From Shigella phage ESh28: a DNA stretch of 64,000 nt. The DNA lies in sequence record ON528738; one strand, given 5' to 3'. The notes under the pieces were generated by a model. It saw nothing but the letters and a program-made list of their open reading frames with translations, was not told the origin of the DNA and made no database searches. The position numbers and the translations under genes were made by a program. Positions 25,882 to 26,736 of the stretch are shown here, in pieces (position 1 is the first letter of the stretch; every line of letters begins with the position of its first letter).

Positions 25882-26336
25882 TGGAATTTAAAGACTTTTC
25901 AACGGGTCTTTATGTAGCAGCTAAGTTTTCAGAATTAACACTTGATGCGCTGGAAGAACTCCAGCGCTCTTTACGTGTTCCTAATCCAGTTCCTAGAGAA
26001 AAAATTCATTCGACTATATGTTATTCGAGAGTAAATGTTCCATATGTTCCATCGAGCGGAAGTTTTGAAGTAGCTTCTTCTGGACATTTAGAAGTATGGA
26101 AAACACAAGACGGATCGACTCTTGTACTTGTACTAGATTCTGAATATCTGCGCTGTCGACACATGTATGCGCGGGCGCTAGGTGCTACACACGATTTTGA
26201 TGATTACACACCGCATATAACATTGTCTTACAATGTTGGGCCCTTATCATTTAGCGGTGATGTACAAATTCCGGTTGTACTTGACCGTGAATACAAAGAG
26301 CCTCTTAAACTCGATTGGGCAGATGATTTAAAATAA
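25881..26336 (+). CDS. 57B: gp57B, 2H-type phosphodiesterase (anti-CBASS Acb1 family)
   Basis: 151 aa directly after 57A; paired HxT/S motifs (HSTI, HITL) typical of 2H phosphoesterases. Confidence 0.8.
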
Positions 26337-26344
26337 TTTCACAA

Positions 26345-26380
26345 AGTTGTTTACATACTGATGAGGTAGTGATACTATTA
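26345..26380 (+). promoter_or_regulatory. T4 early promoter module
   Basis: -35 GTTTAC and a -10-like TACTAT about 18 bp downstream, with inverted repeat gatgaggta/tacctcatc around the -10. Confidence 0.6.
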
Positions 26381-26408
26381 CCTCATCAAAATTAATTAGG
26401 AAAATAAA

Positions 26409-26666
26409 ATGAAAACTTTCAAAGAGTTTGCTACAAAAACTACTATTACTGAATCTTCCCACGGTATGGAAGTAAAGCTTGGAATGGCTTTAGCTGAAGC
26501 TGAGCGTCTTTTCTCTCGTATTAAAGAACTTGCTGCTGCAGTCGATCCTTCGTCTTTTAAAGGAGACCAAACTAAAGTTAAAGCGCTTTTAGCATTATGC
26601 TCCGATGCGGGAGAAATCGCTAAAAATGGTTCTAAGATGAAGAAACGATTAGAAGATTTAAAATAA
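26409..26666 (+). CDS. internal protein with capsid-targeting N-terminus (ipI position)
   Basis: 85 aa; N-terminus MKTFKEFATKTTITE resembles the T4 internal-protein capsid-targeting sequence with an I-x-E prohead-protease site. Confidence 0.6.
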   Translation: MKTFKEFATKTTITESSHGMEVKLGMALAEAERLFSRIKELAAAVDPSSFKGDQTKVKALLALCSDAGEIAKNGSKMKKRLEDLK

Positions 26667-26674
26667 TTTCACAA

Positions 26675-26710
26675 AGTTGTTTACATAGGGTTTTAGTTGT
26701 GATACTATTA
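26675..26710 (+). promoter_or_regulatory. T4 early promoter module (direct repeat of the 26345 module)
   Basis: Same ttcacaaagttgTTTACAta...gtGATACTATtacc core, with a different inverted repeat (ataggg/ccctat). Confidence 0.6.
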
Positions 26711-26736
26711 CCCTATCAACTACTGAGGAGAATAAA

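Follow-up and report, generated by a model that had tools for sequence, protein, structure and literature searches.

The internal-protein gene ip5 of a T4-like Shigella phage lies between two promoter/stem-loop cassettes that are probable sites of gene exchange

Promoter/stem-loop elements at the internal-protein (IP) loci of the T-even phages were reportedly described by Repoila, Tetart, Bouet and Krisch in 1994 (EMBO J 13:4181). In what later papers relay of that work, sequences resembling promoter-early stem-loop (PeSL) cassettes were seen at both T-even IP loci (PMC2839356; PMC4122927), and the work is also relayed in PMC12373910. The PeSL cassettes were generalised by Arbiol et al. 2010 (PMC2839356) and by Comeau et al. 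2014 (PMC4122927), the latter extending them to the PST/T4 pair and citing the 1994 observation at the IP loci. The promoter consensus of the PST/T4 elements is TTTACW-N17-TAYWAT (PMC4122927). In RB49 and phi1, terminator activity was measured for one PeSL and mini-circles were detected (PMC2839356), and the T-even IP elements were described as 'analogs, not homologs' of the PeSLs of these two phages (PMC2839356). The promoter–hairpin cassette model of the ip locus is therefore already in print (1994, 2010, 2014), and the additions made here are small and bring no new principle: genomes that display the empty site explicitly, cassette halves that assort independently, and a repeat that runs over C-terminal codons.

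Internal proteins are injected anti-restriction factors; T4 has Ip1, Ip2 and Ip3, each of which blocks its own GmrSD type IV restriction enzyme (PMC12373910). Because internal proteins counter restriction, cassette-mediated swapping of their genes is a plausible route to a change of host range, and such swapping is relevant to the choice and engineering of therapeutic T4-like phages.

The window analysed (the whole stretch of 64,000 nt) belongs, judging from its gene order, to a Tequatrovirus (T4-like phage). With a 1.8-kb query covering the locus, the closest match among Tequatrovirus genomes is Shigella phage ESh24 (97.9%). In the list of open reading frames (ORFs), gene 2 (23403-24227) is followed by gene 3, gene 1 (dNMP kinase), 57A (25639-25881) and 57B (25881-26336), all on the + strand. 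57B, the conserved left anchor of the locus, belongs to the Acb1 family (Pfam PF23474 Acb1, E=2.6e-60) and is annotated by name in the T4, RB32 and RB14 records. In many other records the gene is labelled 'RNA ligase' or hypothetical, yet it matches the anti-CBASS Acb1 Pfam, and an anti-defence gene thus directly adjoins the anti-restriction ip locus. The conserved right anchor is trna.4 (26737-26922, +), which encodes a 61-aa predicted membrane protein (PHROG 1692, E=6e-35) and is annotated as tRNA.4 in T4, RB32 and RB14. Three further small ORFs separate trna.4 from ten clustered tRNA genes (28225-29055, +), for Gln, Leu, Gly, Pro, Ser, Thr, Met, Tyr, Asn and Arg. There is no segB-like ORF among these ten genes; the T4 record has eight tRNA genes with segB inserted.

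By this setting, positions 26321-26736 are the ipI-position internal-protein locus, in a single-gene ip5 configuration. The gene ip5 (26409-26666, +) encodes 85 aa and belongs to PHROG 3499, 'internal head protein' (E=1.2e-49); it is annotated as Ip5 or ipV in RB32, RB14 and PST. Its leader, MKTFKEFATKTTITE followed by SS, fits the capsid-targeting N-terminal leader of T-even internal proteins (MKT[FY]xEF, then an (L/I)-x-E site), here with an I-x-E site of the prohead-protease type. The leader alone aligns with T4 IPI and nothing beyond it does, so that ip5 is an unrelated internal protein at the position of T4 ipI. Set against the T-even IP-locus elements, as far as the 1994 work is relayed, nothing essential differs. 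The locus is the same (the ipI position between 57B and trna.4), as are the anatomy (an early promoter with a stem-loop on both sides of conserved-leader ORFs) and the proposed role (shuffling of internal-protein genes); the window has a lone ip5 and T4 has ipI.

The 33-mer GATTTAAAATAATTTCACAAAGTTGTTTACATA occurs on the + strand of the 64-kb window exactly twice, at 26325-26357 and 26655-26687, with a spacing of 330 nt, and it finds no match in any of 100 dinucleotide-preserving shuffles, even with three mismatches allowed. Similarity between the copies continues over 69 nt in all (86% identity), with 26321-26389 (cassette 1, between 57B and ip5) matching 26651-26719 (cassette 2, between ip5 and trna.4), both on the + strand. 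No cassette copy beyond these two was found in the window with the 33-mer or with the core of the -10 and 3′ arm, at up to three mismatches. The first exact copy holds a coding tail, a stop codon, an A/T-rich upstream tract and a -35. Its opening 12 nt, GAT TTA AAA TAA, read Asp-Leu-Lys-stop and terminate both 57B (...DWADDLK) and the 85-aa ORF (...KRLEDLK); the final three codons and the stop of 57B (26325-26336) fall within copy 1. It is because both genes end in this way that the exact repeat is longer in the window (33 nt) than in T4. After both copies comes GTGATACTATTACC. The initial annotation had reported this repeat at these two places, with a -10 region behind each copy embedded in a different inverted repeat and exactly one ip-like gene in between; all of this is borne out, the arm pairs of both inverted repeats having been located and ip5 being the sole ORF bracketed.

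The cassettes are intergenic in the sense that each reaches from the upstream gene's stop codon as far as the RBS and ATG of the downstream gene. Their order is constant: the last codons and the stop of the upstream gene lie over the A/T-rich tract, and the promoter, a hairpin across the -10, the RBS and the ATG follow. The PeSLs of T4-like phages have the same composite intergenic order (AT-rich tract, -35, -10, stem-loop, then RBS), and a stem-loop overlapping the -10, as in the window, is one of their described subclasses. They also flank, as here, non-essential genes in which close relatives differ by insertion, deletion or replacement.

Early promoter 1 (26350-26378, +) has its -35 TTTACA at 26350-26355, a 17-nt spacer, TG at 26370-26371 and its -10 TACTAT at 26373-26378. 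In early promoter 2 (26680-26708, +), the corresponding elements are TTTACA at 26680-26685, TG at 26700-26701 and TACTAT at 26703-26708. Both fit the T4 early type (A/T-rich upstream tract, TTTACA, 17 nt, TGnTACTAT) and the PST/T4 PeSL consensus. The window has 11 matches to the pattern GTTTAC-N16-18-TAYWAT, where 0.24 would be expected. From the spacing, transcription is predicted to start near A26385 and A26715; no T4 transcription start-site map specific to the ip locus was found in the literature. Both promoters would fire early, so that every inserted gene would arrive with its own expression signals. In ESh24, the closest relative (locus L004, ~1580-1600), the -35 region of cassette 2 is changed from GTTTAC to ATTTAC, and the trna.4 promoter of that phage may be weakened by this natural variant.

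The two cassettes lead into different ribosome-binding sites. That of trna.4, GGAGAATAAAA (26727-26737, +), is an exact match to the strong RegB cleavage consensus GGAGRAYARAA (PMC3014915), and that of ip5, AGGAAAATAAA (26399-26408), is without GGAG. The right halves of the cassettes may therefore give the ip5 and trna.4 mRNAs different fates after the early period.

Stem-loop 1 (26359-26388, +) is formed across the -10 hexamer by arms at 26359-26371 and 26376-26388, with a Watson–Crick core of 9 bp between GATGAGGTA (26360-26368) and TACCTCATC (26379-26387). Stem-loop 2 (26685-26716, +) is in a different register, with outer arms ATAGGGT (26685-26691) and ACCCTAT (26710-26716) and an inner helix of 26694-26697 with 26704-26707. 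The minimum free energy for stem-loop 1 is -17.4 kcal/mol (z -3.4), and cassette 2, taken as 70 nt, folds at -19.3 kcal/mol (z -3.3); in neither case is any of 200 shuffles as stable. The hairpin of stem-loop 2 by itself has -13.2 kcal/mol. Two control early promoters of the window, whose upstream tract and -35 are in one case the same and in the other near-identical, have no such fold (z +1.2 and -0.8). Across loci, the median hairpin energies are -10.3 and -13.0 kcal/mol for the IP-locus cassettes and -3.4 for other early promoters. Among 30 distinct cassettes, 17 compensatory cells occur in register 1 (12.1 expected; 27 of 500 shuffles as high) and 10 in register 2 (4.1 expected; 0 of 500), both in a mixed-register alignment; since the two registers coexist in it, the covariation signal is modest, and support for the hairpins is taken from the folding z-scores and the contrast with other early promoters rather than from covariation.

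No U tract follows stem-loop 1 or 2, and a terminator scan of both cassettes finds no terminator-like site; canonical intrinsic terminators are thereby rejected as an identity for these hairpins. With the predicted start sites lying within the 3′ arms, only transcripts reading through from upstream could fold into the hairpin. In such transcripts it may act as an attenuator or else stabilise the upstream message at its 3′ end. Most early promoters of the window have no hairpin across the -10. The strongest one belongs to an early promoter at 42166-42215 (+; -19.0 kcal/mol, z -6.3), and strong ones are also found at the denV promoter, 34074 (-10.3), and at 37177 (-8.4). All three promoters are candidates for additional PeSL-like elements at variable spots elsewhere.

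On the other hand, stem runs and hexamers place the window cassettes outside the strict RB49/phi1 type of PeSL. The latter has near-perfect sigma-70 hexamers, TTGACA and TATAAT, with stems made of a G-run and a C-run; in the window, the hexamers are TTTACA and TACTAT and the stems are those given above. Compared with the RB49/phi1 stems, those of the T-even IP elements contain more AT and vary more, and the window stems lack a following U tract. Terminator activity and mini-circles are experimental observations in the RB49/phi1 case.

The comparison of loci comprised the annotated RB32, RB14, PST, ESh24 and T4 together with 36 IMG/VR loci found by 57B similarity. In 40 loci, the 57B–trna.4 interval holds from 0 to 5 genes. 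These are of many unrelated families, and nearly all start with MKT[YF]xEF. Even among phages with a 57B that is 100% identical to that of the window in the tblastn match, the content differs: ipI in T4, ip5 in the window and ESh24, ip5 with ipI in RB14, ip5 with ip9 and ip7 in RB32, ip5 with ip6 in PST (annotated ipV and ipVI) and in locus L006, ip7 in L036, and ip6 in L037. A wider census, made by BLAST counts in a phage collection, gives the 57B body at at least 95% identity in 501 records, the ip5 body at at least 90% in 251 and a T4-type ipI at at least 90% in 143. By these counts, ip5 is a presence/absence polymorphism behind a near-invariant 57B.

Every gene boundary of the 57B–trna.4 locus in the compared relatives carries a cassette, and all boundaries between alternative gene contents fall inside cassettes. 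Over the stretch aligned, cassette 1 is identical to the 57B/ipI cassette of T4, except for one extra A in the T4 A-run before the ATG; from AATA(A/T)TTCAC onward, cassette 2 and the T4 ipI/trna.4 cassette are almost the same. The left half of a cassette (stop codon, upstream tract, -35 and 5′ arm) mostly tracks the upstream gene, with ...CTGATGAGGTA after 57B, ...GGGTTTTAG... after ip5 and ipI, and ...TTTTAGATGGGGTA after ip6, ip7 and ip9. The right half (3′ arm, RBS and ATG) mostly tracks the downstream gene, with ...CTCATCAAAATTAATTAGGAAAATAAAATG before ip5, ipI and ip7, and ...CCCTATCAACTACTGAGGAGAATAAAATG before trna.4. Chimeric combinations of halves are seen at RB14 ip5/ipI, RB32 ip9/ip7 and PST ipVI/trna.4, with stems weakened in some. 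Since the halves occur in several combinations, crossovers are placed in the stretches that they share, namely the upstream-tract/-35 block and the invariant GTGATACTAT core. The GenBank record of RB32 notes that Ip9 and Ip7 are "flanked by 43 bp direct repeat". In locus L022, a cassette at 4694-4745 contains a local tandem duplication of ~20 nt (GATACTATTACCTCATCAA twice), which looks like a slippage scar inside the cassette.

A crossover within the 33-mer predicts a sequence for the loss of ip5, in which the 57B tail runs through the 33-mer into the right-hand part of cassette 2 and on to trna.4. Most phages match this predicted empty site in two pieces, with ip genes between. Two genomes, OR062527.1 (vB_EcoM_11B_SA_NWU) and PQ352352.2 (PTE-Eco15), match it without interruption over 371 nt (98.9% and 98.4% identity); both are annotated with trna.4 directly after 57B, and their hybrid cassette is as predicted, being identical over the aligned intergenic stretch. 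An equivalent hybrid, a 57B/ip6 cassette, stands in front of ip6 in L037. The empty-site genomes could be ancestral recipient sites or deletion products, with the breakpoint inside the repeat either way.

Taken together, ip5 very probably sits between two cassettes of the T-even promoter/stem-loop kind (analogues of PeSLs), at which homologous recombination would swap ip genes and from which early promoters would drive them. Recombination between the two cassettes of one genome would yield a deletion and a circle, and recombination between co-infecting genomes would replace or insert ip genes. T4's own recombination machinery would perform the exchange, with no dedicated recombinase. The initial annotation had put forward such cassettes as vehicles of modular exchange, had expected the gene between the repeats to vary among T4-like genomes and had set a simple local tandem duplication against this. 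The gene does vary (ipI, ip5, ip6, ip7, ip9, arrays of two to five genes, or none), the cassettes recur at every gene boundary of the locus in many phages, and the role as vehicles is supported by the variable content, the chimeric halves and the exact empty-site product of the two phages.

The alternative that survives best, and which we consider unlikely, is that the copies are simply two strong early promoters made alike by selection, the variability of the ip genes being due to illegitimate recombination or to transfer linked to homing endonucleases. Since about 18 nt of the 33-mer are generic early-promoter consensus, some of the identity does reflect selection on promoter function and not shared descent. 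Indeed, TTTCACAAAGTTGTTTAC recurs at unrelated early promoters of the window (exactly at 45369 and 57497, with two differences at 30223), and the T4 early promoters, of the 'UP/-35/TGn/-10' type, share an extended consensus (Hinton, PMC2988021). The identity between the copies, however, continues past the promoter consensus into the coding tail GATTTAAAATAA. Selection on promoters alone also leaves aside that the content boundaries all lie inside cassettes, that halves are chimeric and that the exact crossover product was found; random breakpoints are not expected to leave intact hybrid cassettes.

The hairpin could have a role of its own in exchange. There is a very small chance that, placed across the -10, it is a structure-specific recombination signal that acts beyond homology, for example as an extruded cruciform or as a single-strand hairpin bound by a phage protein. 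If so, the IP locus would be an integron-like cassette array working without an integrase, and the enrichment of hairpins there would serve recombination and not transcription. Integron gene cassettes and phage 'morons' are likewise single genes bounded by repeated elements, carry their own expression signals and form variable-length arrays at a fixed genomic site. A dedicated integron-like recombination system, in which the cassettes are recognised by structure (the hairpin) and the ip genes are mobile cassettes, is likewise very improbable. It would accord with the enrichment of hairpins at IP-locus cassettes relative to other early promoters, with the speculation of Arbiol et al. on a stem-loop-binding protein and with the mini-circles of RB49 and phi1 (PMC2839356). 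But at least two crossover zones are used, the upstream-tract/-35 block in the empty site and the -10 core in RB14 ip5/ipI, and both the sequences and the registers of the stems vary between cassettes. The neighbouring ORFs scanned (57B, trna.4, trna.3 and those of the denV region) gave no recombinase match, and in T4, recombination is reported to proceed through very short homologies (PMC9391042). The locus thus differs from integrons, no integrase or attC-type system being evident in the neighbour ORFs scanned and the crossover points varying within the cassette; it differs from morons in that exchange appears to act on the regulatory sequences themselves.

A tandem duplication of the 57B 3′ end with its promoter, recent, local and private to the ESh28 genome, would suit two copies 330 nt apart that both carry the Asp-Leu-Lys-stop codons, but it is rejected as next to impossible by the recurrence of the same two cassettes around different genes in many phages, T4 included, the intervening DNA being an unrelated gene and the divergence of the hairpin and RBS segments following a pattern common to several phages.

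Two other IP-like genes are present in the window, and a search of the window found no repeat cassettes flanking them. Just past the tRNA cluster, an ORF of 187 aa (29490-30053, +) has an IP-type leader, MKTYAEFLTEAAKLP, and belongs to PHROG 2280 (function unknown). There is no promoter cassette upstream of it; downstream come a hairpin and T's at ~30063-30088 (aaatccctatctaaatgatagggattttt) and then the early promoter at 30223. This ORF possibly encodes an internal protein that has escaped annotation and belongs to neither of the two classical IP loci. The second gene (34555-35028, +) encodes an internal virion protein of 157 aa (PHROG 3155, E=2.9e-101) with the leader MKTYQEFITEAA. It begins 9 nt past denV (34129-34545), which itself follows the lysozyme gene e (33575-34069). 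The order at the second IP locus of T4 is e-ipIII-ipII-denV, and the second IP locus of the window seems to be arranged differently.

The ends of the ip genes show a further regularity. By our count in loci L001-L041, about 17 of 29 distinct C-terminal endings of ip ORFs are Lys followed by the stop (...YLK, ...GIK, ...LYK, ...WLK, ...RKK), the stop and last codons lying over the A-rich stretch (AAAATAA) of the promoter that follows. In this way the promoter seems to constrain the C-terminus of the internal protein, and the homology available to recombination extends into coding sequence.
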